A stretch of 64,000 nucleotides of DNA from an uncultured Actinomycetota bacterium (GCA_963780275.1 CAWABE010000003.1:124958-188957), one strand, 5' to 3'; positions 5,157-55,823 are shown, counted from the stretch's first letter. Notes: generated from the sequence alone by a model not told the origin. Translations and numbers: made by a program.

Positions 5157-6107
5157 TCAGGCGATGGGGAGACCGAACGCTTTGGCCATGTCGGGCGCGT
5201 TCCTGCCCTTGTTCATCGGCTCGGTCTTGCCGATGTCGGCGAGCAGACGGTGCAACGAGTACAGCGTGAGCGGCCGGGTGACCACGTTGCTCTTCTGGCT
5301 GGGATGGATGACGGCCGTGAGGATCCTGTTGCCCTCGTTGTGGTCGTCCTCGTCGGCGGTGACGATGATCAGCAGCCGGCCGGTCTTCCAGTCCGGCCCG
5401 GACATGGCCACCTCGACCCGGTCGGCGATCCAGTCGTCGGCGGTCGGGATGGAGCAGTCGTGGGAGTTGTGGCAGTTGTCCGGGATGAGCATCCCGACGG
5501 TCGCGAGGTCACCCGCGGCGACGTCACCGGCGAACTCGCCGGCGTCGACGACGAACTTCTCGCACAGGTCGCGCTCGTTGACGTAGTAGGTCCAGGGAAC
5601 GTGGCGCGGGACGTACTTGCCGTAGTTGTTCGGCCGGCAGTTCCGCGAGCCCATGCTGTCGGCCCAGATCTTCGCTGTTCCGCCCGCCTTGACCGTGTTG
5701 CCGAACACCGAGGGCTGCCGCAGCCGGATCGACCGGGGGAAGTCGTTCCTCCTCACGCCCAGCGTGCTCCCCGACGCCATCACGATGTAGTTGGGCAGCG
5801 ATGGATGCACGATCGCCCGGAAGTCCGTCGCATATCCGTACTCCTCGGCGAGAGCCCAGATGCGCGGAGCCCGGGCCTTTATCTGGCTGTACGACTTGTT
5901 CTCCACCACCACCACGAGCACCTTGTCGATGCCCGTGGCCACCGACGGGAAGTCCAGCGGTGACTCGGACTCGGTCGGCGTCGGGCTCGGAGCGTCGATG
6001 CTCGAGGGCGGCGGCGCGGGTTTCGGCGCCTTGACCGTCGGCTGGTCGCCACCGCACGCGGACAGCAGCGCGAGGGACAGTGTGGCGACAGCGAGACGTG
6101 CGCGCAT
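5157..6107 (-). CDS. Phosphoesterase / alkaline-phosphatase-family lipoprotein
   Basis: Lipobox LLSA-C; VVVVENKSY, HPSLPNYI, RHVPW, NCHNSHDC, TADEDD motifs. Confidence 0.85.
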   Translation of the reverse strand: MRARLAVATLSLALLSACGGDQPTVKAPKPAPPPSSIDAPSPTPTESESPLDFPSVATGIDKVLVVVVENKSYSQIKARAPRIWALAEEYGYATDFRAIVHPSLPNYIVMASGSTLGVRRNDFPRSIRLRQPSVFGNTVKAGGTAKIWADSMGSRNCRPNNYGKYVPRHVPWTYYVNERDLCEKFVVDAGEFAGDVAAGDLATVGMLIPDNCHNSHDCSIPTADDWIADRVEVAMSGPDWKTGRLLIIVTADEDDHNEGNRILTAVIHPSQKSNVVTRPLTLYSLHRLLADIGKTEPMNKGRNAPDMAKAFGLPIA

Positions 6108-41641: not shown

Positions 41642-42489
41642 CCCAGCTGCGGCTCCTGGGCGCCGCTGACGTGCGGCGCATCGCCGCCGACATCGGATTT
41701 CGCCCGAGCAAGCAGCGTGGTCAGAACTTCGTCGTCGACGCCAACACCGTGCGCCGCATCGTCCGGACGTCCGGGGTCGGCGTCGACGACGTCGTCGTGG
41801 AGGTCGGGCCCGGCCTGGGCTCGCTCACCCTCGGGCTGCTCGACGTCGCCCGTCGCGTGGTGGCCGTCGAGGTCGATCCGGTGCTGGCGGCCCGCCTGCC
41901 GGCCACCGTGGCCGAGCAGGCGCCCGACCACGTCGACCGGCTCGATCTCGTCGAGGCGGACGCGATGCGCGTCGAGTCTCTGCCGGGTCCGCCACCGACC
42001 GCCCTGGTCGCGAACCTGCCGTACAACGTCTCGGTGCCGGTGCTGCTCAACTTCCTCGAGCAGTTCTCCTCCATCACCTCAGGTCTGGTGATGGTGCAGG
42101 CCGAGGTGGCGCATCGGCTCGCCGCCGGGCCCGGCTCACGAACGTACGGCGTGCCGAGCGTCAAGACGGCCTGGTACGCAGACCTCCGCCTGGCCGGCAC
42201 CATCAGCCGCTCGGTGTTCTGGCCGGTTCCCAACGTCGACTCCGCCCTCGTCGCCTGGGAGCGGCGACCGCCACCCGCCGACGACGAGCTGCGCCCCAGC
42301 ACCTTCGATATCATCGACGCCGCGTTCGCCCAGCGGCGCAAGACCCTCCGGTCGGCGCTCGCGCGGCTGGTCGGGTCGCCTGATGCGGCACAGCGGGCCT
42401 TGGCCGCGGCCGGCATCGACCCCGGCCTGCGGGGTGAGCAGCTGGACGTCGGCGATTTCGCTCGCCTGGCGCGTGTCCTGGCCGACTAG
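41638..42489 (+). CDS. rsmA: 16S rRNA m6,2A1518/1519 dimethyltransferase (start CTG 41638 or GTG 41611)
   Basis: [53 protein letters not shown]. Confidence 0.95.
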
Positions 42490-42498
42490 GTTGAACGC

Positions 42499-43419
42499 GT
42501 GACGTCAGCGACCGCGCGGGTCCCCGCGAAGATCAACCTGTCCCTGGGGGTGGGGCCGATCCGCGCGGACGGCTACCACGCGCTCGCCACGGTCTACCAG
42601 GCGCTCGACGTGCACGACGAGGTCCGGGCGGTGAGCGTCGACGACTCCGACGACATCACCGTGTCCGTGCACATCGAGGCCGACCGGCTGGTCGAGTCGA
42701 TCGACGTGCCCACCGACGACGACAATCTTGCTGTCCGCGCTGCGAAGCTGCTGCGCGACAGCACCGGGGCCGAAGGTGGTGCCCGGCTGGCCATCCGCAA
42801 GGTCATCCCGGTCGCCGGCGGCATGGCCGGCGGTTCGGCCGACGCCGCGGCCGCGCTCGTGGCCTGCAACGAGATCTGGGGCACCGGCCTGGCCCGGCCT
42901 GAGCTCGAGCAGCTGGCCGCCCAGCTCGGCAGCGACGTGCCCTTCTTGCTCCATGGTGGAATCGCGATCGGCGGCGGACGTGGCGAGATCATCAGTCCGG
43001 TGCTGGCCCGCGGTTCCTACTTCTGGGTGGTCGCGGTCGCATCGCAAGGACTCGCGACGCAGGACGTCTACGCCGAGTTCGACCGGCTCAACGACGGTGC
43101 CGACCTTCCCCAGCCGGAGCCCCCGGACGACCTGCTCGCCGCCCTGCGGGCCGGTGACGCCACCGAGCTGGGCGCCAGCCTGTCGAACGACCTCACCGAC
43201 GCCGCCCTGTCGCTGCGACCGGAGCTGCGCGGCACGCTCGACCTCGGCCTCGAGGCGGACGCGCTCGGTGCCGTCGTGTCCGGCTCCGGACCCACCTGCC
43301 TGTTTCTTGCCGAGGACGAGGCGCACAGCCTCGACATCGCCATGGCACTCGCCGGGGCCGGAGTGTGCGCCGACGTCATCCAGGCCCGGGGTCCGGTCTC
43401 CGGCGCCAAGCTGATCTGA
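42499..43419 (+). CDS. ispE: 4-(cytidine 5'-diphospho)-2-C-methyl-D-erythritol kinase
   Basis: PAKINL, IPVAGGMAGGSADAA, GSDVPF, NDL, VSGSGPT. Confidence 0.96.
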   Translation: MTSATARVPAKINLSLGVGPIRADGYHALATVYQALDVHDEVRAVSVDDSDDITVSVHIEADRLVESIDVPTDDDNLAVRAAKLLRDSTGAEGGARLAIRKVIPVAGGMAGGSADAAAALVACNEIWGTGLARPELEQLAAQLGSDVPFLLHGGIAIGGGRGEIISPVLARGSYFWVVAVASQGLATQDVYAEFDRLNDGADLPQPEPPDDLLAALRAGDATELGASLSNDLTDAALSLRPELRGTLDLGLEADALGAVVSGSGPTCLFLAEDEAHSLDIAMALAGAGVCADVIQARGPVSGAKLI

Positions 43420-45185
43420 TGGCGCCGCTGCTCGGCGGAGAGGCGCTGAAGGTGGCGTTTCCGGCCCGGCGTGTGCTCGACGGGGTGAGCCTCGGCCTGG
43501 CGGACGGCGATCGCATCGGCGTGGTCGGGCGCAACGGCGACGGCAAGTCGACCCTGCTGCGGGTTCTGGCCCGGCGGATCGAGCCGGACGACGGCCGGAT
43601 CACCTGGCGCCGCGACCTGCGGGTCGGCGTCCTCGACCAGGCCGACCGGCTCGGCCCCGATCTGGTGGTGTCATCCGCGGTGGTGGCCGACCGGCCCGAG
43701 CACGAGTGGGCCGGGGATGCCCGCATCCGCGACATCATCGCCGGCCTGCTGACGGACGTCCCGTGGACCGGCAGGATCGGCGAGCTCAGCGGTGGTCAGC
43801 GCCGGCGCGTCGCCCTCGCCCAGGTGCTGGTGGGCGAGCACGACGTGGTGTTCCTCGACGAGCCCACCAACCACCTCGACCTCGAGGGCGTCATGTGGCT
43901 CGCCGAGCACGTGAAGTCGCGCTGGCCGCGGGGAGTGGGCGGCCTCGCCGTCGTCACGCACGACCGCTGGTTCCTCGACGAGGTCTGCACCCACACGTGG
44001 GAGGTGCATGACGGGATGGTCGATGCGTTCGAGGGCGGCTACGCGGCGTACGTGCTGCAACGCGTGGAACGCGACCGCCAGGCGGCCGCGGTGGAGTCCC
44101 GCCGGCAGAACCTGATGCGCAAGGAGCTCGCGTGGTTGCGCCGCGGTGCTCCCGCCCGGACGTCCAAGCCCAAGTTCCGCATCGACGCGGCGAATGCGCT
44201 CATCGAGCGGGAGCCGCCGGTCCGTGACCCCACCGAGCTCGTCCAGCTCGCCACCTCCCGTCTCGGCAAGGACGTCGTCGACCTGCTCGACGTCTCGGTG
44301 TCATTCGGTGAGAAGGAGGTGCTGCGCGATGTCGAGTGGCGCATCGGGCCGGGGGAGCGTGCCGGCATACTCGGCGTCAACGGCGCCGGCAAGAGCACGC
44401 TCCTGGGGCTGGTCACCGGAGCCGTGAAGCCCACCTCGGGCCGGGTCAAGCGCGGTAAGACGGTTCGCGTCGGCACGCTGTCGCAGACTCTCGCCGAGCT
44501 GGAGCCGTTCGCCGACGACCGGGTGAGCGACGTCGTCGCGAAGCAGCGCACATCCTTCGTCGCGGGCGGGCAGGAGCTATCGCCCGGCCAGCTGCTGGAA
44601 CGGCTCGGCTTCTCGCACGGACAGCTGGCCACGCCGGTGCGCGACCTGTCCGGTGGCCAGAAGCGCCGCCTGCAGCTGCTGGTCGTCTTGCTGGCCGAGC
44701 CCAACGTGCTGATCCTGGACGAGCCGACCAACGACCTCGACACCGACATGCTCGCGGCGATCGAGGACCTGCTCGACGCCTGGCCGGGCACGCTGCTGGT
44801 CGTCTCGCACGACCGCTACCTGGTCGAGCGCGTCACCGACCACCAGTTCGCCGTCCTCGACGGACGGCTGCGGCATCTGCCCGGCGGCGTCGACGAGTAC
44901 CTGCGGCTGCGGGCCGGCGAGACCTCGTCTCGACCGGTTCAACGACCGCCCCATGAGCCCGCCGCAAGGACGACGGATGCGAAGCAGCAACGGCAGGACC
45001 GCAAGGAGGTCGACCGGCTGGAGCGTCAGATCGAGAAGCTGTCGGCGCGTGAGGCCGAGCTGGAGAAGCTGATGGTCGAGGCGGCGACACACCCGGAGAG
45101 CCTCATCCCGCTCGACGAGGAGCACCGCGAGGTCGTCGCCCGTCGCGAGCAGGCGGAGGACGCCTGGCTCGCACTCACGACCTGA
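43419..45185 (+). CDS. ABC-F family ATP-binding protein (Uup-like)
   Basis: Two ABC domains (GRNGDGKST/LSGGQ/DEPTN; GVNGAGKST/LSGGQ/DEPTN), no TM, C-terminal coiled coil. Confidence 0.93.
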   Translation: MAPLLGGEALKVAFPARRVLDGVSLGLADGDRIGVVGRNGDGKSTLLRVLARRIEPDDGRITWRRDLRVGVLDQADRLGPDLVVSSAVVADRPEHEWAGDARIRDIIAGLLTDVPWTGRIGELSGGQRRRVALAQVLVGEHDVVFLDEPTNHLDLEGVMWLAEHVKSRWPRGVGGLAVVTHDRWFLDEVCTHTWEVHDGMVDAFEGGYAAYVLQRVERDRQAAAVESRRQNLMRKELAWLRRGAPARTSKPKFRIDAANALIEREPPVRDPTELVQLATSRLGKDVVDLLDVSVSFGEKEVLRDVEWRIGPGERAGILGVNGAGKSTLLGLVTGAVKPTSGRVKRGKTVRVGTLSQTLAELEPFADDRVSDVVAKQRTSFVAGGQELSPGQLLERLGFSHGQLATPVRDLSGGQKRRLQLLVVLLAEPNVLILDEPTNDLDTDMLAAIEDLLDAWPGTLLVVSHDRYLVERVTDHQFAVLDGRLRHLPGGVDEYLRLRAGETSSRPVQRPPHEPAARTTDAKQQRQDRKEVDRLERQIEKLSAREAELEKLMVEAATHPESLIPLDEEHREVVARREQAEDAWLALTT

Positions 45186-45188
45186 TGC

Positions 45189-46211
45189 CTAGTCGAAGAT
45201 CGCGCTGTAGACGTTGAGCGCCGGCTGCCCGCCGAGGTGGGCGTACAAGACGGTCGAGTCACGTTCGATCTCACCGGAGCTGACGAGATCGATCAGCCCG
45301 GCCATCGACTTACCTTCGTAGACAGGATCGATGATCATCGCCTCGAGGCGGCCCGAGAGGCGGATCGCCTCGATCGTCGACTCGACGGGGATGCCGTACA
45401 GGTCGCCGGCCCAGCCTTCGAGGACGGTGATCTCGTCATCACGCAGATCCCGGCCGAGCTCGATGAGCTTCGCGGTGTTGCGAGCGATCCGGTCGACCTG
45501 ATCGCGGGTCTTGTCGAGCGTGGCCGAGGCGTCGATGCCCAGCACGCGTCGAGGGCGGCCCCCGGCGCTCTTTTCGAGCGCGGCGAAGCCGGCGATCATT
45601 CCGGCGTGGGTCGAGCCGGTGACGGTGCAGACGATGATGGTGTCGAAGAAGAGGCCGAGCTCCTTCTCCTGCTCGGCGACCTCGAAGGCCCAGTTCGCGA
45701 AGCCGAGGCCACCGAGGCGGTGCTCGGACGCACCGGCGGGGATGCCGTACGGCTTCCCGCCTGCCTTCTCGACCTCCGCGATCGCGTCCTCCCACGACGA
45801 ACGGATGCCGATGTCGAATCCTGATGGGTCCAGGTGCACGTCGGCGCCCATGATCCGCGACAAGAGGATGTTGCCGACCCTGTCGTTGCCGGGGTCGTCC
45901 CAGTCGACCCACTTCTCCTGGACGAGTCGGCACTTGAGACCGAGCTTCGCGGCGACGGCAGCCACTTGACGCGTGTGATTGGACTGAAAGCCACCGATCG
46001 ACACCAGCGTGTCCGCACCCTGCGCGAGCACGTCGGGAACGATGTACTCGAGCTTTCGGGTCTTGTTCCCCCCGAAGGCGAGGCCGCTGTTGCAGTCCTC
46101 GCGCTTGGCCCAGACCCGGGCACCGCCGAGATGCCGGGTCAGCCGGTCGAGGGGATGGATCGGACTGGGCCCGAAGGTGAGCGGATAGCGCTCGAAGTCG
46201 TGGATCGGCAC
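45189..46211 (-). CDS. acdS: 1-aminocyclopropane-1-carboxylate deaminase
   Basis: [46 protein letters not shown] and YAHLGG carrying the Glu and Leu that separate AcdS from D-cysteine desulfhydrase. Confidence 0.93.
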
Positions 46212-46280
46212 ACGTCATGATCCCACGGTGTCTGAGCCGCAGGGCCGTCCGTCAGCCGCCCTTCGGCCGCCATGAGTCGG

Positions 46281-46781
46281 TCAGACGTTCCGCGCGAGGG
46301 CGCGCAGTGCGCTGGCGAGCTTCGTCGCCTCGGCAGCATCGAGCGCTCCGAGGATCTTCCGCTCGTGGGCGAGCAGCTCGTCGAGCGCGGCGTCCACCCT
46401 CTGGCGGCCCGATGCGGTGAGGCGCACGAGCACACCGCGGCGGTCGTCCGGGTCCGGCCGGCGCTCCACCAGCCCGCGGGCGACGAGCCGGTCGACGCGG
46501 TTGGTCATGGTGCCGCTGGTCACCAGCGTCTCGGACACGAGGCGGCCCGGCGAGAGGTCGTAGGGCTGCCCGGCCCGGCGCAAGGCGGCGAGCACGTCGA
46601 ACTCCCAGGTCTCGAGAGCGTGTGCCGCGAAGGCCTGCTTGCGTGCGCGATCGAGGTGGCGAGCCAGCCGCGAGACACGGCTGAGGACCTGCATGGCAGA
46701 GACGTCGACGTCGGGACGCTCGCGCTTCCAGGCGTCGACGATGACGTCGACCTCGTCGGGCTCCTGCGCGGGTGCGGCCAC
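46281..46781 (-). CDS. MarR family regulator (TamR-like)
   Basis: DEVDVIVDAWKRERPD, WEFDVLAALRRAG.PY.LSPG, TSGTMTNRVDRL, DRRGVLV.LT. Confidence 0.9.
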   Translation of the reverse strand: MAAPAQEPDEVDVIVDAWKRERPDVDVSAMQVLSRVSRLARHLDRARKQAFAAHALETWEFDVLAALRRAGQPYDLSPGRLVSETLVTSGTMTNRVDRLVARGLVERRPDPDDRRGVLVRLTASGRQRVDAALDELLAHERKILGALDAAEATKLASALRALARNV

Positions 46782-46797
46782 ACGTCCATGCTAGGTC

Positions 46798-46820
46798 GTC
46801 AAGAATCTTGACGTCGAGAT
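46798..46820. promoter_or_regulatory. Overlapping palindromes upstream of the MarR gene (TamR-like operator)
   Basis: GTCAAGA-A-TCTTGAC (46798-46812) and ATCTTGAC-GTCGAGAT (46805-46820). Confidence 0.7.
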
Positions 46821-46855
46821 GGTTTCGCGCGGATGACGGCGAGTAGCGTGCCGTC

Positions 46856-48196
46856 ATGGACGTCGACGAAGTCGTTGCGGCGGGGGCCACCCAGCAGGTC
46901 ACCGCGATGAGGTCGGGTGCCCTCAGCGCCCGCGAGCTCACGGTGGCCACCCTCGCCGCCGTCGAGCGCGAGAACGCCCGCTTGAACGCCGTGGTGGAGC
47001 TGCTGGCCGACGAGGCGTTCGACGCCGCCGCCGAGGCCGACCAGCGGCGCGCCGACGGCGACGACGGGCCGCTGCTCGGAGTGCCGATCGCCATCAAGAA
47101 CGACCTCGATCTCGCCGGGCATGTCACGGCGCTCGGCAGCCGCGCCGTCACGACTCCGGCGACGGCCGACGCCGAGCTCGTCGCTCGCATCCGGCGCGCC
47201 GGCATGGTTCCGGTGGCGACGACGACCCTGCCCGAGCTGGCGATCTACGGTTTCACCGAGTCCGAGGCCCATGGCATCACCCGCAACCCCCACCACCTCG
47301 ACCACTCCCCGGGAGGGTCGTCGGGCGGATCGGCGGCGCTGGTCGGTGCCGGGGCGGTCAGTGCTGCCACCGCCTCCGACGGCGCCGGCTCGGTCCGCAT
47401 CCCGGCCGCATCATGCGGGCTGGTCGGGTTCAAGCCGACGCATGGAACCATGCCCAGCTCGGGCGGCTGGCACGGTCTGTCGACCCAGAGCGGGCTCGCG
47501 CAGCGCGTCGCGGATGCCGCCCTGTTTCTGCAGACCGTGGGCACCTTCGACGAAAACCTCGTCGATGCGGCCACCACCGATCCGCCGCCCCTGCGGGTGG
47601 GCGTATCGACCAGCGCGTCTGCCGCGACCCGCGCGCTTCCGGTCGACTCCCGCGTCCGGTCGGCCATCGATGCGACGGCCTCGGCACTCGACCGTGCCGG
47701 CCATGAAGTGCGCGAAACGTCCATCCCGTTCCGGCTGGACGCCAGGATGCTCGCGGTTCGTTTCCTGACCGGAATCCGCGACCAGGCCGCGGACGTCGAC
47801 GACCCGTCCCTGCTCGAGAAGCGCACGCGCCAGATCGCCCGACTGGGACGTCCCTTCGGCCCGGGCTCGATTGCCCGGTCACGAGCAGCCGGTGAACGGT
47901 GGGGCGGTTCGGTGCACGACGATCTCGGTGTCGACGTCCTGCTGACGCCCGTGATGAGCGGCCCCGCCCTGCCGGTGGGGCGCTTCGACGGCCGTGGCGG
48001 CATCCGCACCGTGCTCGGGATGAACGCCTTCTATCCGTACACGGTGCAGTGGAACCATGCCGGGACGCCGGCGGTCTCGATACCGGTGGGCCGGACGGAC
48101 GACGGACTCCCGTTGGCCGTGCAGCTGATCGCCCGCCGTGGAGACGACGCCAGACTGATGTCGCTCGCCGGCTGGCTGGAGCGATCGTCAGCGTGA
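46856..48196 (+). CDS. Amidase signature family protein
   Basis: GVPIAIKND, PGGSSGGS, SDGAGSVRIPA..CGLVGFKP. Confidence 0.93.
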   Translation: MDVDEVVAAGATQQVTAMRSGALSARELTVATLAAVERENARLNAVVELLADEAFDAAAEADQRRADGDDGPLLGVPIAIKNDLDLAGHVTALGSRAVTTPATADAELVARIRRAGMVPVATTTLPELAIYGFTESEAHGITRNPHHLDHSPGGSSGGSAALVGAGAVSAATASDGAGSVRIPAASCGLVGFKPTHGTMPSSGGWHGLSTQSGLAQRVADAALFLQTVGTFDENLVDAATTDPPPLRVGVSTSASAATRALPVDSRVRSAIDATASALDRAGHEVRETSIPFRLDARMLAVRFLTGIRDQAADVDDPSLLEKRTRQIARLGRPFGPGSIARSRAAGERWGGSVHDDLGVDVLLTPVMSGPALPVGRFDGRGGIRTVLGMNAFYPYTVQWNHAGTPAVSIPVGRTDDGLPLAVQLIARRGDDARLMSLAGWLERSSA

Positions 48197-48981
48197 GCGG
48201 GTGGGACCCGGACCTCTACCTGCGTCACGCTGACGATCGAGGACGACCGTTCCTCGACCTGCTCGCCCGTGTCGATGTCACGCCCTACTCGATCGTCGAC
48301 CTCGGCTGTGGTCCCGGGCAGCTGACCCCGGTCCTGCAAGAGCGCTGGCCACACGCGATGATCCTCGGTGTCGACTCGTCCGCCGAGATGATCGGGGCGG
48401 CACATGGCCGGGATGACGGTCCGTCCGTCTCGTACGTCCAGGCCGATATCACCAGCTGGGAGCCAGCTGGTCCGGTCGACCTGATCGTCTCGAACGCCAC
48501 GTTCCAGTGGGTGCCGGACCAGCTGGAGGTCATCCGCCGGCTCGCCCGGCACGTCGCTCCCGGAGGCGCGTTCGCGCTCCAGGTGCCGAACAACGTCGGT
48601 GAACCGAGCCATGTCCTGCTCCGAGGCATGGCCTCCAGCGCTCCGTACGCGGAGTACACGACTGGTGTCCGCGAGCCACGGGGCACGGACCCGCAGGACT
48701 ACGTGGAGCTGTTCGCGGGGATGTCCGACGGCCTCGGCTGGAACGTCGACGTCTGGTCCACGACGTACCTGCACGTGCTCCAGGGCGAGGACCCGGTGTT
48801 CTCGTGGATCTCCGGCACCGGTGCGCGCCCGGTCCTGCAGACATTGCCGGACGATCTGCGCGACCAGTTCGTCGTGGAGTACAAGGCTGCGTTGCGTGAG
48901 GCGTACCCCGCCGAGCCCTGGGGGACCGTGTTCCCATTCACGCGCGTGTTCGCCGTCGCCGAGCTGCTGGACTGGCGATAG
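48193..48981 (+). CDS. tam: Trans-aconitate 2-methyltransferase
   Basis: WDPDLY..H...RGRPF.DLL, DLGCGPG, GVDSSAEMI, SNATFQWVP, FPFTRVFAVA; GTGA overlap with the amidase. Confidence 0.9.
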   Translation: MSGWDPDLYLRHADDRGRPFLDLLARVDVTPYSIVDLGCGPGQLTPVLQERWPHAMILGVDSSAEMIGAAHGRDDGPSVSYVQADITSWEPAGPVDLIVSNATFQWVPDQLEVIRRLARHVAPGGAFALQVPNNVGEPSHVLLRGMASSAPYAEYTTGVREPRGTDPQDYVELFAGMSDGLGWNVDVWSTTYLHVLQGEDPVFSWISGTGARPVLQTLPDDLRDQFVVEYKAALREAYPAEPWGTVFPFTRVFAVAELLDWR

Positions 48982-49030
48982 CCGCGGATCCGCAGAAGCG
49001 ACCGGTAGCCTGAGCGTGGTGAAAATGCAT

Positions 49031-49050
49031 TCCCCGGTTGGTCTGCCGGC
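49031..49050 (+). repeat. Exact upstream duplicate of the first 20 nt of the tRNA-Gln 5' half
   Basis: TCCCCGGTTGGTCTGCCGGC at 49031-49050 and 49096-49115; candidate -10 TAGCCT at 49006-49011. Confidence 0.92.
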
Positions 49051-49095
49051 CAAGAGGGTGCTGCCCCGCCTGGCGGGCCCACAATTTCATATCGA

Positions 49096-49141
49096 TCCCC
49101 GGTTGGTCTGCCGGCAGGGCCCGCCTGACTTTGAATCAGGC
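49096..49141 (+). tRNA. 5' half of an interrupted tRNA-Gln (anticodon TTG)
   Basis: Acceptor 5' strand TCCCCGG, D-arm-like GGTC...GGCA.GGCC, anticodon stem-loop (G)CCTGA-CTTTGAA-TCAGG(C). No T-arm follows; the sequence runs into a protein-coding fragment. Confidence 0.8.
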
Positions 49142-50573
49142 CGAGGCGCTACGGTGGCTGGCAGAGCTCTCCACGCCGCTTGGCCAGGGCATCGCGCTGT
49201 GCGACCGGGCGCTCGAGGATGCCGGCACAGACGCGGCCGTCGCCAGCCGGATCCACCGGACCAGAGGCGCGATTTCCTACTTCCTCGGCGACGTGCCCGC
49301 GGCCGAGCACCACGCCAGACTCGGCGTCGAACTCGCGGAACGTAGCGGCGACGACCAGGCGCTGGGCATGGCCATCGCCGAGCTGGCCCACTGGACCTAT
49401 TGCGGCGGCGGAGGTGTGCGCCGCGATCTCCTCGATCGCGCGGTCGCACTCGACGGCTCGGCCGGGGCATCCTCACCGCGCAGTCACCTGGCCAAGGTCG
49501 TCATGGACAACGACGGACATGACGAGGCCCGAGCGCTCCTCACGCTCCTGCTCGACCAGACCATGGAGACCGGCGATCTGTACTCGGCATCGACGCACGA
49601 GTTCCATCTGGCCGAGCTCGACGTGTGGGCCGGAGACTGGCCAGGCGCGATCGAGCACGCCGAGGAGAGCCTCCAGCTGCGACAGCACCTTGACCAACCG
49701 GGCGCTCCTCTGTACGTCGGCGCGATGGCGCGCGCGTGTCTCGGCGACGTCGACGAGGCCCGGAGCCTGGCTGAAACCGGGCTGGTGGAAGCGCGGCGCG
49801 CGGAGGACGTGGTCTTCTGCATGCAGAACCTGCATGTCCTCGGATTCGTCGAGCTGTCGCTCGGCAACTACGAAGCCGCCCAAGCCCTCCTGGGCGAGGC
49901 GACCGATCTGATGCGGTCGCGCTGGAACCGGGAGTTCGGCGACTGTCACGTGGTCCCGGACCAGATCGAGGCGCTCGTGGCACTCGGGGACCTGGCGCGG
50001 GCCGAGGACCTCTCGGAGTGGATGGACGAGGTCGCCCGAGCGACCCAGCGGCCCTGGACGACGGCCACCGGTGCGCGGTCCCAGGCATTGGTGCAGGCGG
50101 CCAGGAACGACCTCGACGGGGCAGACGCGGCCTTGGAGCGGGCGCTGGCGGCGCACGAGCGGCTGCCGATGCCCCTCGAGCTCGGGCGGACGCTCCTGAC
50201 GCGCGGCATCGTCCAACGCAGGATGAAACGTCGAGCGGTCGCCCGCGAGACCCTCGAGCAGGCCCTCGTGCTCTTCGAGGGTCGTGGCGCGACCTTGTGG
50301 GCCGAGCGGGCGCGCTCGGAGATCGCGCGCATCGGCGTGCGGTCAGCCGCGCAGGTCGACCTGACCCCGGTCGAGCAGCGGATCGCGGCTCTGGTCGCGC
50401 AGGGATACACCAATGGAGAGATCGCCGCGTCGCTTTCCTTGAGCAGAAAGACGGTCGAGGCGAACCTCTCGCGCTCCTACCGAAAGATGGGCGTCCGGTC
50501 CCGAGCACAGCTCGTAGCCAGGCTCTCGGAACCGCCTGAGCCCGCGGCCGCCCCCGGCACCAGCAATTCCTGA
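49140..50573 (+). pseudogene. N-terminally truncated large LuxR-family (TPR + HTH) regulator
   Basis: TPR-like helical repeats and C-terminal LuxR HTH (LTPVEQRIAALVAQGYTNGEIAASLSLSRKTVEANLSRSYRKMGVRSR). No ATPase domain or credible start; protein-like sequence begins at the tRNA junction (AEALRWLAEL). Confidence 0.75.
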
Positions 50574-50627
50574 CCACCGGGGGAGTTCCCCGATTACCGC
50601 GTCTCCTCGCCCGCCTACCTTCTTCAG

Positions 50628-50945
50628 ATGGAGTCCGCACTGCAGGAGAGCTTTCTGGTGGAGCGTTACTGGCCTGATGTCGGGCGTGCAGACGTCGCTA
50701 CGGCGGAGGAGCGCCTCTGCCGAGCCGCGGGGGCCCTCACGCTCGACGGGATCCCGATCCGGATCGTGAGCTCGACCTGGATCCCGGCCGATGAGGTCGT
50801 GCTGACGCTGTTCGAGGCGGGCGAGGAGGACGACGTACTCGAGGTCGGCCGGCGCAGCGGCTACCCGTTTGACCGCATACAGCGCGTCGAAGTTGTCACA
50901 GAAGCGAGCCGGAGGTGGCGTGGTGATGAAGAAGAGCATGTCTGA
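50628..50945 (+). CDS. Small protein resembling DUF4242 / SCO4226-like nickel-binding family
   Basis: FLVERYWP, STWIP.DE..L.LFEA, GYPFDRI; family call tentative. Confidence 0.6.
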   Translation: MESALQESFLVERYWPDVGRADVATAEERLCRAAGALTLDGIPIRIVSSTWIPADEVVLTLFEAGEEDDVLEVGRRSGYPFDRIQRVEVVTEASRRWRGDEEEHV

Positions 50946-52164
50946 GACGCAGCGAGTCGACGACGCGGACATCTGGGGGCTGCGACAGGCCATCCGCGGC
51001 CAGGTACTGGTGCCCGACGAGCCGGGGTACGACGAGGCACGGCGGGTGTGGAACGGGACCGTCGACCGGAGGCCGGCGCTGATCGCCCGGTGCGCCGACG
51101 CGACCGACGTGCAGCGAGCCCTGGGCTTCGCGGTGGAGCACGACCTCCCGGTCGCAGTGCGCGGCGGGGGCCACAGCGTCGCCGGCTTCTCCACCTGCGA
51201 CGACGGTGTGCTCATCGATCTCGGCCTGATGCGCACAGTGAGCGTCGACGCGGACGCACGGGTCGCACGGGCCGAGCCAGGGGCCACCGGGGCCGACTTC
51301 GACCGAGCGACCCAGAAGCATGGACTCGCCACAACGCTCGGGGTCGTGAGCACGACCGGGATCGCCGGGCTGACGCTGGGTGGTGGGATCGGGTGGCTGA
51401 TGCGCAAGCATGGGCTCGCCTGCGACAACCTGATCTCTGTCGATCTGGTCACCGCTGACGGCCGCCTCGTCACCGCCAGCTTGGACGAAAACCCGAACCT
51501 CTTCTGGGCCCTGAAGGGCGCGGGAGGCAACTTCGGCATCGTCACCTCGTTCGAGTACCGGCTGCATCCGGTCGGCCCGACGGTGTACGGCGGGAGCGTG
51601 GCATTCGCCTCCGAGCACCGGCGTGCCGTCCTGGAGTCCTACCGGGAGCTAACCGGGAAGGCTCCGGACGAGCTGACGACGTACGCGGCAATGACCGCGG
51701 CTCCGGACGGCTCGCCCGTGGCCGCGATCGCCGCCTGCTACGCGGGCGATCCGGCCGAGGGCGCACGCCTGCTCGACCCCATCAAGGCCGCAGTCGGCGA
51801 GCCGTTGCTCGATGCGCTGGGACCGCTGACCTACACCGAGCAGCAGAGCCGGATGGACGAGGGATACCCGCGCGGTGAGTACCACTACTGGCGCTCGTGC
51901 TTCCTCGACGCCCTCACCGACCAGGTCATCGACGTCTTGGTCGACCGGGCCAGCGACAGCCAGGCGCCGCCAACCCTCGAACTCATCGTGGAGCACATGG
52001 GTGGCGCGATCGCGGCGGGTGACGGATCCTTCGCGCATCGCGACGCGAACTACGACGTCCTCATCGCAGCCAACTGGACCGACTCCGCCGATCAGGACCG
52101 CTGCATCGCCTGGGCGCGCGACACCGCTGCGGCTACTCGAGCCGCACTCACGCGGCGGCACTAG
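50926..52164 (+). pseudogene. FAD-binding oxidoreductase (BBE/6-hydroxy-D-nicotine oxidase-like), C-terminally truncated
   Basis: RRVWNG, VRGGGHS, TGIAGLTLGGGIGWL, ALKGAGGNFGIVT. Ends after WARD without the Y.N / K..YDP.N.F BBE tail; TAG (52162-52164) lies inside the tRNA 3' half. Confidence 0.75.
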
Positions 52165-52193
52165 CGACGCAGGTTCGACTCCTGCCCGGGGAG
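52160..52193 (+). tRNA. 3' half of the interrupted tRNA-Gln
   Basis: T-arm GCAGG-TTCGACT-CCTGC (52169-52185), acceptor 3' strand CCGGGGA (52186-52192) exactly complementary to TCCCCGG, discriminator G. Confidence 0.82.
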
Positions 52194-52210
52194 CGAGAAC
52201 GTGTGTGCTT

Positions 52211-52230
52211 CGGCAGTTCAGGAACTGCCG
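52211..52230. terminator. 9-bp hairpin between the tRNA 3' half and the convergent hydrolase gene
   Basis: CGGCAGTTC-AG-GAACTGCCG. Confidence 0.55.
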
Positions 52231-53111
52231 TGCTGTGACGAGTCCAGTTCGGCTGCCGACCGGACCTCGTTGCCGGACGCCGACGCCTGGCGATCCAGCC
52301 AGCTTCGCATCAACCGTCCCGTCTGGTGTGGGTCGTCGAACATGGGGAAATGACCGACTCCCGACAGAACGTGAGACTCGGCGTGCGGGACGGCCTGGTG
52401 CCACAAGGGCTGCTCGTTGACCATCGGCGTGAATCGGTCCATTTCGCCCCAGGCCAACATGAACGGCACCGTCACTTCAGGTGTCGAATCGAGGCGAAAG
52501 GCCGAGAATCCCGGAAGCAAGTTGGCCCAGTCGCCTTTGGCGCTGTTCTTGCTGATCGCCATCGCCTGTCGAGCGGAGATCCGGTCGCCGTGCTCGAGCA
52601 CCGCGCGCAGCGCGATTCGCCTCATCTGCGGACGCGCGAGGACGACTGGTGCGAGCAGTCGACGGAGCCACGACAGATTGTTCAGTATTTCGAAATGCTT
52701 CACGAGACGCCGGGTTTGCTCCTGATTCGAGCCTCCAGCGGGGCAGATGGCGAGCGCGCTGCGCGCCCTTCCCTCTCTCGCGACGCCGAGCGCTGCAAGA
52801 CCTCCAAGCGAACAGCCAATGATGTGAGCGGACCGAAACCCTGCTCGGTCCATTTCCTCGGCGACACCGCGAGTCAGATCGTCCAGGGTGACTGGGCCGG
52901 TCAGCGGGTTGCCGCCGTCCCAGCCGGCCAGGGTCGGCGCAATGATCTCGAACCTGTCCAGGAGATGCGGAAGCAGGGGCTGCCACTTGCTCCACGGATT
53001 TGCGCCCATGTGAAGCAGGACCAGCGGTTCCCCTGAGCCGATGTGAAGCGTTCGTCGACCGCTGCTGGTGACCTCGACAAACCGCTTGAGACCTCCGGAC
53101 CGGGGTTTCAT
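52218..53111 (-). CDS. Alpha/beta fold hydrolase
   Basis: GSGEPLVLLH, GCSLGG nucleophile motif, AWGEMD, GVGHFPM; start uncertain; visibly more A/T-rich than neighbours. Confidence 0.8.
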   Translation of the reverse strand: MKPRSGGLKRFVEVTSSGRRTLHIGSGEPLVLLHMGANPWSKWQPLLPHLLDRFEIIAPTLAGWDGGNPLTGPVTLDDLTRGVAEEMDRAGFRSAHIIGCSLGGLAALGVAREGRARSALAICPAGGSNQEQTRRLVKHFEILNNLSWLRRLLAPVVLARPQMRRIALRAVLEHGDRISARQAMAISKNSAKGDWANLLPGFSAFRLDSTPEVTVPFMLAWGEMDRFTPMVNEQPLWHQAVPHAESHVLSGVGHFPMFDDPHQTGRLMRSWLDRQASASGNEVRSAAELDSSQHGSS

Positions 53112-53197
53112 CGCAGTATCAAACCAACAAACGTCGTTCGTGGCGGGGAGTTCGTGAAATTGGCGCTCTGCCACGCAGTCGACATCGTCGGCGGCCG

Positions 53198-54286
53198 ATG
53201 CGACGCGAGTCCCTGTGCGACCATGTGCCCGTGGGTACCCGCCCAGCACTTCTTCGTCGCGAGCTTCCCGTTCGACCTGGGCAACGTGACCAGCCGCAAG
53301 ACGACGGCTGGGATTCTCCCCAGTTCCGTGATGGGACGTTCCACAGCTCCGAGCCCACCCACATCTTCGGGGGTCTGGAATGGGTTCCCTTTTGCTTCGC
53401 GTGGTCGGCGCACCGAATTCGACCCGCTCGGAAACTGAGCATCCCGGTGGAGAAGCCGACCTTGGGAACAGCCGACGAGCTGGCTGTGACCTGGCTCGGC
53501 AATGCCAGCGTGCTCGTCGAGATCGACCACCACTGGATATTGATGGACCCGATCTTCGGGGAGCGACCGTCACCCATCGCCCAGGTAGGACCGAAGCGAA
53601 CCCATGCTTCCCCAGTCGAGGTGAGCGGCCTACCGCCACTCACCGCGGTCGTGATCTCACACGACCACTACGACCATCTCGATGCCCCGACGATCGCCGC
53701 AATCGTCACCCTCCAGGACGTGCCCTTTGTCGTACCGCTCGGCGTCGGCTCTCACCTGCGCCGCTGGGGCGTCCCACCAGACCGGATCATCGAACGGGAC
53801 TGGGGAGGGGAAGTTCGCATCGAATCCCTCACCCTCACCTGCACAGAGGCGCGCCACTTCTCCGGTCGGTGGCTCGCGCGGAACAAGACGCTGTGGTCGT
53901 CGTGGGTTCTGGCGAGCGACAACGGTCCACGCGTCTTCTTCGGCGGCGATTCGGGATACACGGCCGCCTTCTCGGGCCTCGGCACCTCCTACGGTCCGTT
54001 CGACATCACCATGATTCCGATCGGGGCCTACGACCGTCGCTGGCCGGACGTCCACATGACGCCCGAGGAGGCGATCGAGACGCACATCAACGTGCAGGGA
54101 GGCACGATGCTTCCGATCCACTGGCTGACATGGGATCTGGCTTTCCACAGCTGGGACGACCCCATCGAGCGCGCCGTGATCGCAGCTGAGTCTCGCGAGG
54201 TGAACATCGCCCTCCCGCGACCAGGCCAGCGACTGGACAGCGGGTGCGTCCCGACCGAGAAGTGGTGGCGGGCGCAACCGGCCTGA
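53198..54286 (+). CDS. MBL-fold metallo-hydrolase (NAPE-PLD/RomA-like); N-terminus uncertain
   Basis: SPQFRDG, DPIFGERPSP, SHDHYDHLD, ARHFSGR, FGGDSGY, PIGAY, HMTPEEA, PIHW.TW.LAFH.W. Confidence 0.85.
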   Translation: MRRESLCDHVPVGTRPALLRRELPVRPGQRDQPQDDGWDSPQFRDGTFHSSEPTHIFGGLEWVPFCFAWSAHRIRPARKLSIPVEKPTLGTADELAVTWLGNASVLVEIDHHWILMDPIFGERPSPIAQVGPKRTHASPVEVSGLPPLTAVVISHDHYDHLDAPTIAAIVTLQDVPFVVPLGVGSHLRRWGVPPDRIIERDWGGEVRIESLTLTCTEARHFSGRWLARNKTLWSSWVLASDNGPRVFFGGDSGYTAAFSGLGTSYGPFDITMIPIGAYDRRWPDVHMTPEEAIETHINVQGGTMLPIHWLTWDLAFHSWDDPIERAVIAAESREVNIALPRPGQRLDSGCVPTEKWWRAQPA

Positions 54287-54353
54287 TGACGAAGTATGTC
54301 TGGAGCCAACGGCACCCGCCGACGCCAGACACGCGACGGTTTCCGTCGGTACG

Positions 54354-55823
54354 TCAGCCCTCCGGCAGCGGTGTGTAGACGGACTTGACCTCGGTGTACT
54401 CCGCCAGACCCTCGGGACCGAACTCGCGGCCGTACCCGGAGTTCTTGTAGCCGCCGAACGGGGCGGCGAAGTCCATCGTGTAGGTGTTCACGCCGATGGT
54501 GCCGGTGCGCACCCGGCGGGCGACGTCGACTCCGGCCTCGAAGTCGGCCGTCCACACCGTGCCGGCCAGGCCGTACTCGGAGTCGTTCGCGATGCGGACG
54601 GCGTCGTCGACGTCGTCGTAGGGGATCACCGAGAGGACGGGACCGAAGATCTCCTCCTGGGCGATCCGCATCTGGTTGTCGACGTCGGCGAAGATCGTCG
54701 GCCGGACGTACCAGCCACGGTCGAGGCCGTCAGGCATCCCGTTGCCGCCGACGACGACTCGAGCACCCTCCTCCTGACCGAGGGCGATGTACTTCTCCAC
54801 CCGTTCCTGCTGGCGCTGCGACACCATCGGGCCGACCTCGGTCTCTGGGTCGCTGGGGTCCCCGACCTTCATCGCCGACACGGTCTCGGCCAGCGCATCG
54901 ACCACGGCGTCGTAGTTGTTCCGGCTGGCCAGGATCCGGGTCTGGGCCACACAGGCCTGGCCGGAGTTCATCAGCGCGATGAACTTCAGCCCCTCCATGG
55001 TGGGACCGAGGTCGGCGTCGTCGAGCACGATGGCGGCGGACTTGCCGCCGAGCTCGAGGCTGACCCGTTTCAGCTGCTCGCCGCACACCTTCCCGATCGC
55101 CCGGCCGGCGGCCGTCGAGCCGGTGAAGGCCACCTTGTCCACGCCGGGATGGGCGACGAGGTGCGCACCGACCTCGCGGCCGGCAGCCACGATGTTCACC
55201 ACGCCCGGGGGAACGCCGGCTTCCTGAAGCAGCTCGGCGAGCAGGTACGGATCGAGCGGCGTTTCCGGCGCCGGCTTCACCACGATGGTGCAGCCGGCCA
55301 GCAGGGCCGGGACGAGCTTGGACATGATCGTGAACTGGGGGACGTTCCAGGGCGGGATGGCCGCCACCACGCCGACCGGCTCGTGCCGGACGATCACGTC
55401 GGCGCCCAACGCACCGGGTCGCGGCTCCTCCCAGGGGAACTCGCGGGCCACGGCGAGGAACGCCTCGATCTGCATCCACGGAGCCGGCGACTGCGCCAGG
55501 TTCGAGAACGACGTCGGCGCGCCCATCTCGATGGTGATCAGGTCGGCCATCTCGCCGAGGCGCGCGGCGTAGAGGGCCGAGAACGCCTCGATCACGGCGA
55601 TCCGCTCGGCCGGCGACATCCGTGGCCACGGCCCCTCGTCGAACGCCGTGCGCGCGGCGGCGACGGCCGCGTCGATGTCGGCCGCCGTGCCGTCCGGCAC
55701 CGTGGCGACCACGTCCTCGCTGTGCGGGGAGATCACCTGCAGCAGGTCTCCGGAGGCGGGCGCGGACCACTCGCCACCGATGAAGAGGGCGTCACGGTCG
55801 AGATTCATGGGTGTCCTTGTCAT
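54354..55823 (-). CDS. Aldehyde dehydrogenase
   Basis: PWNVP, FTGSTAAG, LELGGKS, NSGQAC, EEIFGPV, PFGGYKNSG.GRE. Confidence 0.95.
   Translation of the reverse strand: MTRTPMNLDRDALFIGGEWSAPASGDLLQVISPHSEDVVATVPDGTAADIDAAVAAARTAFDEGPWPRMSPAERIAVIEAFSALYAARLGEMADLITIEMGAPTSFSNLAQSPAPWMQIEAFLAVAREFPWEEPRPGALGADVIVRHEPVGVVAAIPPWNVPQFTIMSKLVPALLAGCTIVVKPAPETPLDPYLLAELLQEAGVPPGVVNIVAAGREVGAHLVAHPGVDKVAFTGSTAAGRAIGKVCGEQLKRVSLELGGKSAAIVLDDADLGPTMEGLKFIALMNSGQACVAQTRILASRNNYDAVVDALAETVSAMKVGDPSDPETEVGPMVSQRQQERVEKYIALGQEEGARVVVGGNGMPDGLDRGWYVRPTIFADVDNQMRIAQEEIFGPVLSVIPYDDVDDAVRIANDSEYGLAGTVWTADFEAGVDVARRVRTGTIGVNTYTMDFAAPFGGYKNSGYGREFGPEGLAEYTEVKSVYTPLPEG

Follow-up and report, generated by a model that had tools for sequence, protein, structure and literature searches.

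In a 64,000-nucleotide stretch of DNA from an uncultured Actinomycetota bacterium (GCA_963780275.1, CAWABE010000003.1:124958-188957; hereafter the window), the gene for tRNA-Gln(UUG) is split in two by 3,019 bp of protein-coding DNA, an internal piece of a cassette made of a regulator, a small protein and an oxidase gene. Judging from the sequence, this arrangement probably originated in a single illegitimate, i.e. homology-independent, insertion into an empty site in which the tRNA gene lay between the genes for a Tam methyltransferase and a hydrolase. The two pieces of the tRNA gene, 45 nt and 34 nt long, give after joining in silico a 79-nt tRNA which ARAGORN calls as Gln(ttg), and the rejoined gene shows no difference from the uninterrupted gene of a syntenic relative (L091), whose 3' allele, ACTAGCGACGCAGGTTCGACTCCTGCCCGGGGAG, is also that of the window. 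The break falls directly after nt 45, where the anticodon stem ends on its 3' side, and with 3,019 bp parting nt 45 from nt 46 the window copy is no longer an uninterrupted gene able to give a mature tRNA. Formerly this gene was uninterrupted and stood in a Tam - tRNA - hydrolase arrangement. Of the two empty sites, L091 is 78% identical to the left flank over 2 kb and 85.8% identical to the right flank over 303 nt, the latter stretch being contiguous with its intact tRNA, and in the second, L244, the hydrolase is followed by an 80-nt gap holding the tRNA and then by Tam.

Both joints can be described to the base. At the left one the tRNA sequence ...AATCAGG is followed directly by CCGAGGCG, which in the donor is preceded by ...GACGAG, with a microhomology of 1 nt (the G at 49140, common to tRNA and donor). 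At the right one ...GCGGCGGC is followed by ACTAGCG of the tRNA, where the donor continues with TACGTC, and the microhomology is 0 nt. No base of the target was lost or duplicated at the tRNA. BLAST homology to three native loci of the cassette, L001 (91.8-92.0% identity), L002 (87%) and L243 (99.67%), starts at 49139/49140 and stops at 52159, and those loci continue beyond both points. Outside the stretch equivalent to the insert, the similarity between L001 and L002 extends about 1.35 kb to the left and 0.35 kb to the right, and neither of them matches any other part of the window. Each breakpoint interrupts a reading frame: the regulator, of 920 codons, is cut at codon 444, and the oxidase, of 458, at about codon 411. 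The fragment ends are arbitrary with regard to genes and motifs and have no motif or repeat in common, the longest inverted match between them being 6 nt and the longest direct match 7 nt, which is the level of chance. Neither transposase, integrase nor recombinase domains were found by Pfam in the three open reading frames (ORFs) of the insert or in the scanned flanks (about 16.5 kb upstream and 12 kb downstream). These results are in accordance with an earlier note on this DNA, which had described a mid-gene-to-mid-gene piece of a regulator, small protein and oxidase unit without terminal inverted repeats or a recombinase: the truncation points coincide with the tRNA junctions, donors with full-length genes exist, and the limits of homology to them match 49141 and 52159. 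The end coordinate given there, 52164, takes in 5 nt of the tRNA and is to be replaced by 52159.

Comparison of the carried genes with their full-length homologues shows what was cut off. The regulator fragment aligns to residues 333-794 of P0009 and retains its TPR repeats and LuxR helix-turn-helix (HTH), and the full regulator P0121, 920 aa long, has AAA_16 at its N-terminus followed by TPR and the LuxR HTH. AAA_16 was found in the upstream parts of L001 and L002 as well; the L001 frame that holds it crosses the point matching 49140 unbroken, and both P0121 and L001 frame A read ...PAGPGR/AEALRWLAEL... through the point (slash) equivalent to the break. The called product of the fragment in the window (P0001, 480 aa) starts at the TTG at 49131-49133, which is the tRNA anticodon, and the regulator frame is open back through the tRNA 5' half. 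At the other end, the oxidase fragment aligns at 90% identity with residues 2-402 of the oxidase of L001, which has 457 aa and in which BBE occupies residues 411-453, and the full-length oxidase P0126 has 458 aa. The window copy ends about 144 nt before the native stop and thus has its BBE domain removed. Its last nine codons are out of frame owing to a private 1-nt insertion at 52131-52134, and its stop TAG (52162-52164) belongs to the variable loop of the tRNA. A left gene with TPR and LuxR parts lacking its ATPase half, and a right gene lacking BBE and borrowing its TAG from the tRNA, is what the earlier note had read here, and with full-length forms of 920 aa and 457-458 aa it is clear that neither protein is naturally this short. 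The same note had taken the middle gene and the palindrome upstream of it as whole, which also agrees with the comparison: the 105-aa protein is identical in the sister strain L243 and has homologous ORFs of 94-104 aa in L001, L002 and L003, and the core of the inverted repeat (GGGAGTTCCCC / GGGAGTTCCCCGATTAC) is kept in the L001 and L002 donors, where the left arm is one base shorter. This repeat may serve as a terminator or as an operator. Presumably the two truncated genes, like the split tRNA gene, have lost their function. Coordinates of all features are collected in Table 1.

Table 1. Features at the split tRNA-Gln(UUG) gene, in window coordinates.
Feature	Position	Strand	Basis and remarks
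65-nt repeat unit, copy of tRNA nt 1-20 (49031-49050) plus promoter-proximal sequence	49031..49095	+	native locus, outside the insert
tRNA-Gln(UUG) 5' part, nt 1-45	49096..49140	+	acceptor 5' strand, D arm, entire anticodon stem-loop; anticodon TTG 49131-49133
Inserted fragment (F), 3,019 bp, internal piece of regulator / small protein / oxidase cassette	49141..52159	+	BLAST against native cassettes and empty sites
LAL-type regulator fragment, 3' 477 codons (444-920)	49140..50573	+	TPR_12, TPR_MalT, GerE by Pfam; ATPase half gone
Inverted repeat GGGGA-GT-TCCCC	50580..50591	.	between regulator stop and small ORF
Complete 105-aa ORF, weakly SCO4226-like (PF14026)	50628..50945	+	Pfam E = 1.2e-4, below curated threshold
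FAD-linked BBE-type oxidase fragment, 5' ~411 codons of 458 aa	50926..52159	+	FAD_binding_4 only by Pfam; BBE lost
tRNA-Gln(UUG) 3' part, nt 46-79	52160..52193	+	variable region, T arm, acceptor 3' strand, discriminator G
Right flank: terminator-like hairpin (GGCAGTTC/GAACTGCC), then alpha/beta-hydrolase gene	52194..53111	-	Pfam Abhydrolase_1, Abhydrolase_6

The identity of the interrupted gene is supported by its orthologs. The consensus of the 79-nt gene in the loci listed is TCCCCGGTTGGTCTGCCGGCAGGGCCCGCCTGACTTTGAATCAGG/ACTAGCGACG(T/C)AGGTTCGACTCCT(A/G)CCCGGGGAG, the first slash marking the break point. The 5' part of the window matches the first 45 nt in every other copy retrieved with a 36-nt probe, which itself came from inside the 45 nt whose conservation was scored, and three copies have compensated changes in the acceptor stem. 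ARAGORN calls tRNA-Gln(ttg) for 230 intact orthologs, and the Rfam tRNA model (RF00005) gives 36.8-40.1 bits for the intact orthologs L007, L017 and L034, against a threshold of 29. Both the T stem (GTAGG/CCTAC, GCAGG/CCTGC, GATGG/CCATC, GAAGG/CCTTC, GGTGG/CCACC) and the acceptor stem (CCCCGG/CCGGGG, CCCCAG/CTGGGG, CCCTGG/CCAGGG) covary. A permissive Rfam scan of 48000-53500 (E up to 10) gave no tRNA match for the split window copy. Two other calls in this region were rejected: the tRNA-Ser(cga) of ARAGORN at 52141-52237 (97 nt) is a miscall composed of the 3' half, i.e. the orphan T arm and acceptor strand, and the downstream terminator hairpin, and the Rfam match to YrlA (Y RNA-like; 22 bits against a threshold of 69) is an artefact of the same 3' half and hairpin (region 52141-52249). 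Such false calls would probably be propagated by automatic annotation.

Native cassettes were found via protein homologues in L001, L002 and L003, with 92%, 87% and about 67% nucleotide identity, respectively, and in all three the order is regulator, small ORF and oxidase with BBE (457-462 aa). Exact-sequence look-ups, in which the window fragments cluster with the 920-aa regulator and the 458-aa oxidase, led by way of the 105-aa protein to the sister contig L243 (ENA ERZ25039516 contig_35166). This contig is 98.8% identical to window positions 42071-49050, or about 99.6% if the last 500 nt are left aside, and its genes follow the order of the window, ksgA ... amidase - Tam. It carries an intact tRNA-Gln and, 130 nt downstream of it, the full regulator - small ORF - oxidase cassette in the orientation of the window, from which the insert differs by nine mismatches and one indel (99.67% identity). 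L243 ends 9 nt past the oxidase stop, and L246, contig_21674 of the same sample, starts in the middle of the hydrolase at window position 52794 and matches the right flank at 99.0%, and at 100% further out; in the sister strain the whole cassette is thus placed between tRNA-Gln and hydrolase. Since a full cassette is found 130 nt from the same intact tRNA in this strain, donor and target are linked, and the fragment is best regarded as a local relic of strain-variable DNA beside the same tRNA and not as a random sample from a distant locus. No full-length regulator or oxidase of at least 90% identity from the window's own assembly is present in the protein collection, where the fragment is the sole remnant. 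The 3' tRNA allele of L243 (ATT/GTAGG versus ACT/GCAGG in the window) was considered as proof of an integrase-borne attP and dropped, because the empty site L244 has the allele of L243. Three long contigs from sister samples, which include ERZ25039516 and ERZ25039530, end at the tRNA locus: L243, L246 (end at window position 52794) and L247 (end at 52194, exactly one base after the tRNA 3' end). These ends suggest structural heterogeneity or repeats in natural populations.

Divergence from the sister strain is distributed unevenly along the locus. The last 170-250 nt upstream of the tRNA are 9-13% diverged, three of the 34 nt of the tRNA 3' part differ, and the first 500 nt of the comparable right flank are 3% diverged, and in the first 2.7 kb of the insert there are only two differences. 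This abrupt change of similarity at both joints indicates that the fragment and its immediate surroundings have different histories, and it is a reason why we favour insertion over erosion of a longer island in place. It can also be seen that divergence climbs toward the tRNA on both sides (48570-49095 and 52794-54800), from 0-0.4% to 3-13%, and that the right flank at 52194-52800 is nearest to a third lineage, L247 (1.3-2% divergence, with 4-5% further out). A search for homologues of the hydrolase gave no conspecific copy, and relatives of at most 89% identity, one of them L244. The mosaic of the flanks points to frequent recombination around the tRNA locus.

Under the favoured insertion, a double-strand break would have occurred in the tRNA gene at 45/46 and a linear fragment of 3,019 bp would have been joined into it by end-joining, presumably of the Ku/LigD type of non-homologous end-joining (NHEJ) in actinobacteria. 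The donor would probably be a copy of the local island or cassette in the same cell, whether broken, excised, displaced or incoming. In a replicative variant beside simple ligation, the nearby cassette would have served as the template from which the fragment was copied at the break, and the remaining island would have been lost afterwards. Flush joints with zero to a few nucleotides of microhomology, no gain or loss at the target and arbitrary fragment ends are expected from repair of the NHEJ type and are all found here, and the end-joining at a DNA break proposed in the earlier note fits such joints with 0-1 nt of microhomology. Homology-facilitated illegitimate recombination (HFIR) and scenarios of the microhomology-mediated break-induced replication (MMBIR) type were also considered, and for the two joints together neither offers an explanation simpler than a single insertion. 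Several points weigh against it. No Ku or LigD is encoded among the 26 ORFs of the 64-kb window scanned by Pfam, and the insertion offers no reason for a break at exactly 45/46. The position of the cassette beside the same tRNA and in the same orientation in the sister strain is also what two-sided erosion in place would give. Disruption of an apparently single-copy tRNA should be lethal without a second copy. Finally, no independent contig or read crosses either joint: eight soil runs hold parts of the region only, and a search with junction-only k-mers and a search restricted to Nanopore data gave no match. What the public runs contain are the flanks, pieces matching the insert at 100%, and a native cassette of about 97% identity that extends beyond either breakpoint.

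The tRNA-Gln gene is known as a target of other elements too. A second, partial tRNA copy is present in eight loci (L055, L118, L104, L209, L037, L022, L183 and L073), the partial copies setting in around the anticodon loop, in four loci at CTTTGAATCAGG, nt 34; those of L037, L022 and L183 are shorter or degenerate and that of L073 is a diverged near-full copy. In L055 the tRNA at about 81-159 is immediately followed by a tyrosine integrase ORF (PF00589; 288-2012, minus strand), and the partial tRNA is near 5.8 kb. Because of these eight loci and the integrase beside the intact tRNA in L055, tRNA-Gln is an integration hot spot of the anticodon-loop class.

The strongest rival of the insertion, which we nevertheless regard as unlikely, is that an island was eroded in place. 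A sister-like ancestor with the order tRNA (attL), cassette, rest of the island, partial tRNA (attR) and hydrolase would have lost DNA on both sides of the present fragment, on the left tRNA nt 46-79, the spacer and regulator codons 1-443, and on the right oxidase codons 411-458, the rest of the island and attR nt 34-45. This could have happened through two deletions or through an abortive excision, in which both tRNA copies were cut, the island released, its ends resected and the remainder religated. In favour of erosion are the position and orientation of the cassette, which are those of the sister strain, a divergence between insert and sister cassette (0.3%) that is near that of the backbone (about 0.4%), and a tRNA that is a proven integrase target; contigs from sister samples breaking at the locus suggest structural heterogeneity. 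It requires, however, two deletion end points at the same coordinate, 45/46, in two tRNA copies, and this coordinate differs from the crossover region of the elements, whose repeats start at the anticodon loop at nt 34. It also does not predict near-flanks that are 3-13% diverged around an insert which is 99.7-99.9% identical, and no integrase or other island remnant is found in the insert or the scanned flanks. On balance we rate the insertion as about three times as likely as erosion; the joints are homology-independent in either case.

That the structure was produced by assembly or library preparation, through a chimeric read or a wrong path in a metagenome assembly graph, seems improbable to us. 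The source is evidently metagenome-assembled, its relatives and the sister contigs are metagenome-assembled genomes or of Flye style, the junctions are not confirmed by any independent run, the locus breaks assemblies in two sister samples, and the structure inactivates an apparently essential gene. Yet a simple A-B chimera cannot produce two joints which restore the tRNA to the base around 3 kb, no repeat common to either joint is present that could mislead an assembler, and the insert is unlike any other assembled copy, differing even from L243 at nine positions and one indel.

The earlier note left out the likely housekeeping role of the split tRNA and the need for a back-up gene. Among the matches listed, tRNA-Gln(UUG) appeared once per genome, three complete chromosomes included, and it appears to be a housekeeping gene. 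CAA codons make up 23 of the 338 glutamine codons in the window genes, metG, ispE and glmU among them, and no other tRNA-Gln(UUG) was found in the 64-kb window by ARAGORN. As CAA codons are in use, another functional tRNA-Gln(UUG) must exist elsewhere in the genome. We consider it very improbable that the split gene itself still yields a working tRNA, with the insert removed from a long precursor or the halves joined or assembled in trans, although the use of CAA, the absence of mutations in both halves and an insert in the same orientation behind the tRNA promoter speak for it. If true, it would explain how the lineage tolerates the loss of a seemingly single-copy and needed tRNA, and the gene would be the first functional split or protein-coding-interrupted tRNA gene known in Bacteria.

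A dedicated or recurrent capture mechanism at this tRNA position, for which the earlier note had suggested a sampling enzyme acting in trans or an undescribed capture system, hardly comes into consideration. The clean junction, a tRNA that is a hot spot of mobile DNA and the 63-nt partial duplications upstream could be brought forward for it, but all three only indirectly. The 36-nt probe from the 5' half retrieved at least 120 loci from the GTDB set (one genome per species), the matches listed including Nocardioides, Aeromicrobium, Marmoricola, Microlunatus, Propionibacteriaceae, Knoellia, Janibacter, Terrabacter and Intrasporangium. Among the 240 other copies listed from genomes and metagenomes none is interrupted; 231 are intact, and the remaining nine run into a contig end or into masked bases. 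Among 241 million metagenome contigs, none has the 36-mer with a base other than A at nt 46, directly after nt 45, against at least 119 contigs with A in the control. In addition, the boundary of all other partial tRNA copies is at the anticodon loop, as is usual for integrases, and no candidate enzyme gene is present among the nearby genes scanned. The event looks like a one-off.

Transposons, integrase-borne islands and tRNA introns are, in our estimate, as good as dismissed. Although islands classically insert at tRNA genes, as group I introns do in some bacteria, neither a transposase, terminal inverted repeats and target-site duplication, as in transposons, nor an integrase gene and a direct repeat of the tRNA 3' end beside an intact tRNA, as in integrase islands, are found here; a single tRNA 3' segment and no duplicate of it is present in the window, which also holds no second copy of the insert, and the end genes are truncated in comparison to full-length homologues. 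Searches of plasmid and phage collections gave only distant matches of the FAD domain and no sign of a cassette borne by a plasmid or phage. Group I introns in bacterial tRNA genes are ribozymes in the anticodon loop, and the split tRNA genes of Nanoarchaeum depend on complementary leader sequences and the archaeal splicing endonuclease. The locus is similar to both in that the coding sequence of a tRNA is interrupted or in two pieces in the DNA. It differs from them by an insertion 3' of the anticodon stem and outside the anticodon loop, by the absence of any intron or ribozyme fold in 48000-53500 according to Rfam, even at E up to 10, and by the absence of complementarity between the sequences flanking the halves, the insert being ordinary truncated protein-coding DNA. 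With the tyrosine-integrase islands of L055 type it shares the target gene and a donor cassette which, in the sister strain, belongs to strain-variable DNA beside the tRNA. Those islands keep the tRNA intact, have a direct repeat starting from the anticodon loop and carry an integrase, in contrast to the window, which has none of these and has its joint at 45/46.

To our knowledge, capture of DNA by end-joining at chromosome breaks in bacteria has been shown only with engineered breaks. The locus described here would be a natural case of this known process, DNA captured during end-joining repair, with Ku/LigD as its presumed machinery, and no new system. As such it is one of the scarce natural examples, resolved to the base, that allow the product to be set against both its empty site and its full-length donor, here from an uncultured Nocardioidaceae (Aeromicrobium-like) soil population. 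It illustrates that DNA beside a tRNA integration hot spot may be reshuffled without an integrase, which is possibly one route by which island remnants and truncated "orphan" genes originate, and it raises the question of CAA decoding with a broken tRNA-Gln(UUG) gene.

In Streptomyces ambofaciens, repair of the NHEJ type at I-SceI breaks gave five insertions of 30 bp to 18.8 kb, all of endogenous DNA, whose source in two cases lay near the cut (Hoff et al. 2018, PMC5869714). The window resembles these insertions in several respects, i.e. an actinobacterial host, an arbitrary endogenous fragment, sometimes from near the break, little or no microhomology and no recombinase or repeats; it differs from them in that the breaks in S. 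ambofaciens were made in the laboratory and the role of NHEJ in mutagenic break repair was tested in mutants, whereas here the event would be natural, the target is a tRNA and Ku/LigD is presumed. For Sinorhizobium meliloti it was demonstrated that a DNA cassette can be captured into a break in the chromosome in a Ku/LigD-dependent manner (Dupuy et al. 2019, PMC6379672). Common to both cases would be the ligation of a linear fragment into a genomic break without homology, which those authors proposed as a route of DNA acquisition. Their cassette was electroporated, had compatible I-SceI ends and was selected by a marker, in contrast to the conspecific DNA of the window, which has neither engineered ends nor a selectable function.

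The cassette itself was found in three unrelated contexts (L001 4543-9324, L002 360-5295 and L243 7095-11669). The loci resemble one another from about 20-90 nt before the regulator onward, and L001 and L002, the pair in which the other border is visible, as far as about 200 nt past the oxidase. The regulator was broken independently, in L001 by a private 1-nt insertion at 6037 and in L002 by an insertion of about 88 nt which detaches the AAA half. The cassette resembles a portable unit of three genes in which the regulator often decays.

The flanks of the split gene are core actinobacterial genes, with metG, rsmI, an rpfB-like gene, ksgA, ispE, ABC-F, a PLP-dependent enzyme, MarR, amidase and the Tam methyltransferase upstream, and the alpha/beta hydrolase, an MBL-fold protein, aldehyde dehydrogenase, APH, glmU and prs downstream. 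The hydrolase and MBL-fold genes (52200-54300), which are also adjacent in L091 and L244, have a G+C content of 0.63-0.65, compared to about 0.70, and low G+C at third codon positions, and may have been acquired at this tRNA at an earlier time.

The tRNA-Gln(UUG) is itself unusual, with 79 nt, an 18-nt D arm, a 9-nt variable region and an Rfam score of only 37-40 bits (e.g. L017 1511-1589, L007 4825-4903); the 36-nt probe nevertheless recurs exactly in Nocardioidaceae, Propionibacteriaceae and Intrasporangiaceae. The repeat unit upstream of it, in which self-BLAST matches 49031-49050 to 49096-49115 at all 20 positions, consists of 63-65 nt, i.e. tRNA nt 1-19/20 together with about 44 nt of promoter-proximal sequence with a small hairpin. 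The window has one extra copy, L243 of the sister strain none. Of 188 loci, 27 have at least one extra copy of the 63-nt unit, and in L045 (3393-3701) and L034 (4697-4986) it is found in tandem four to five times, the copies being 97-99% alike within a genome and different between genomes.

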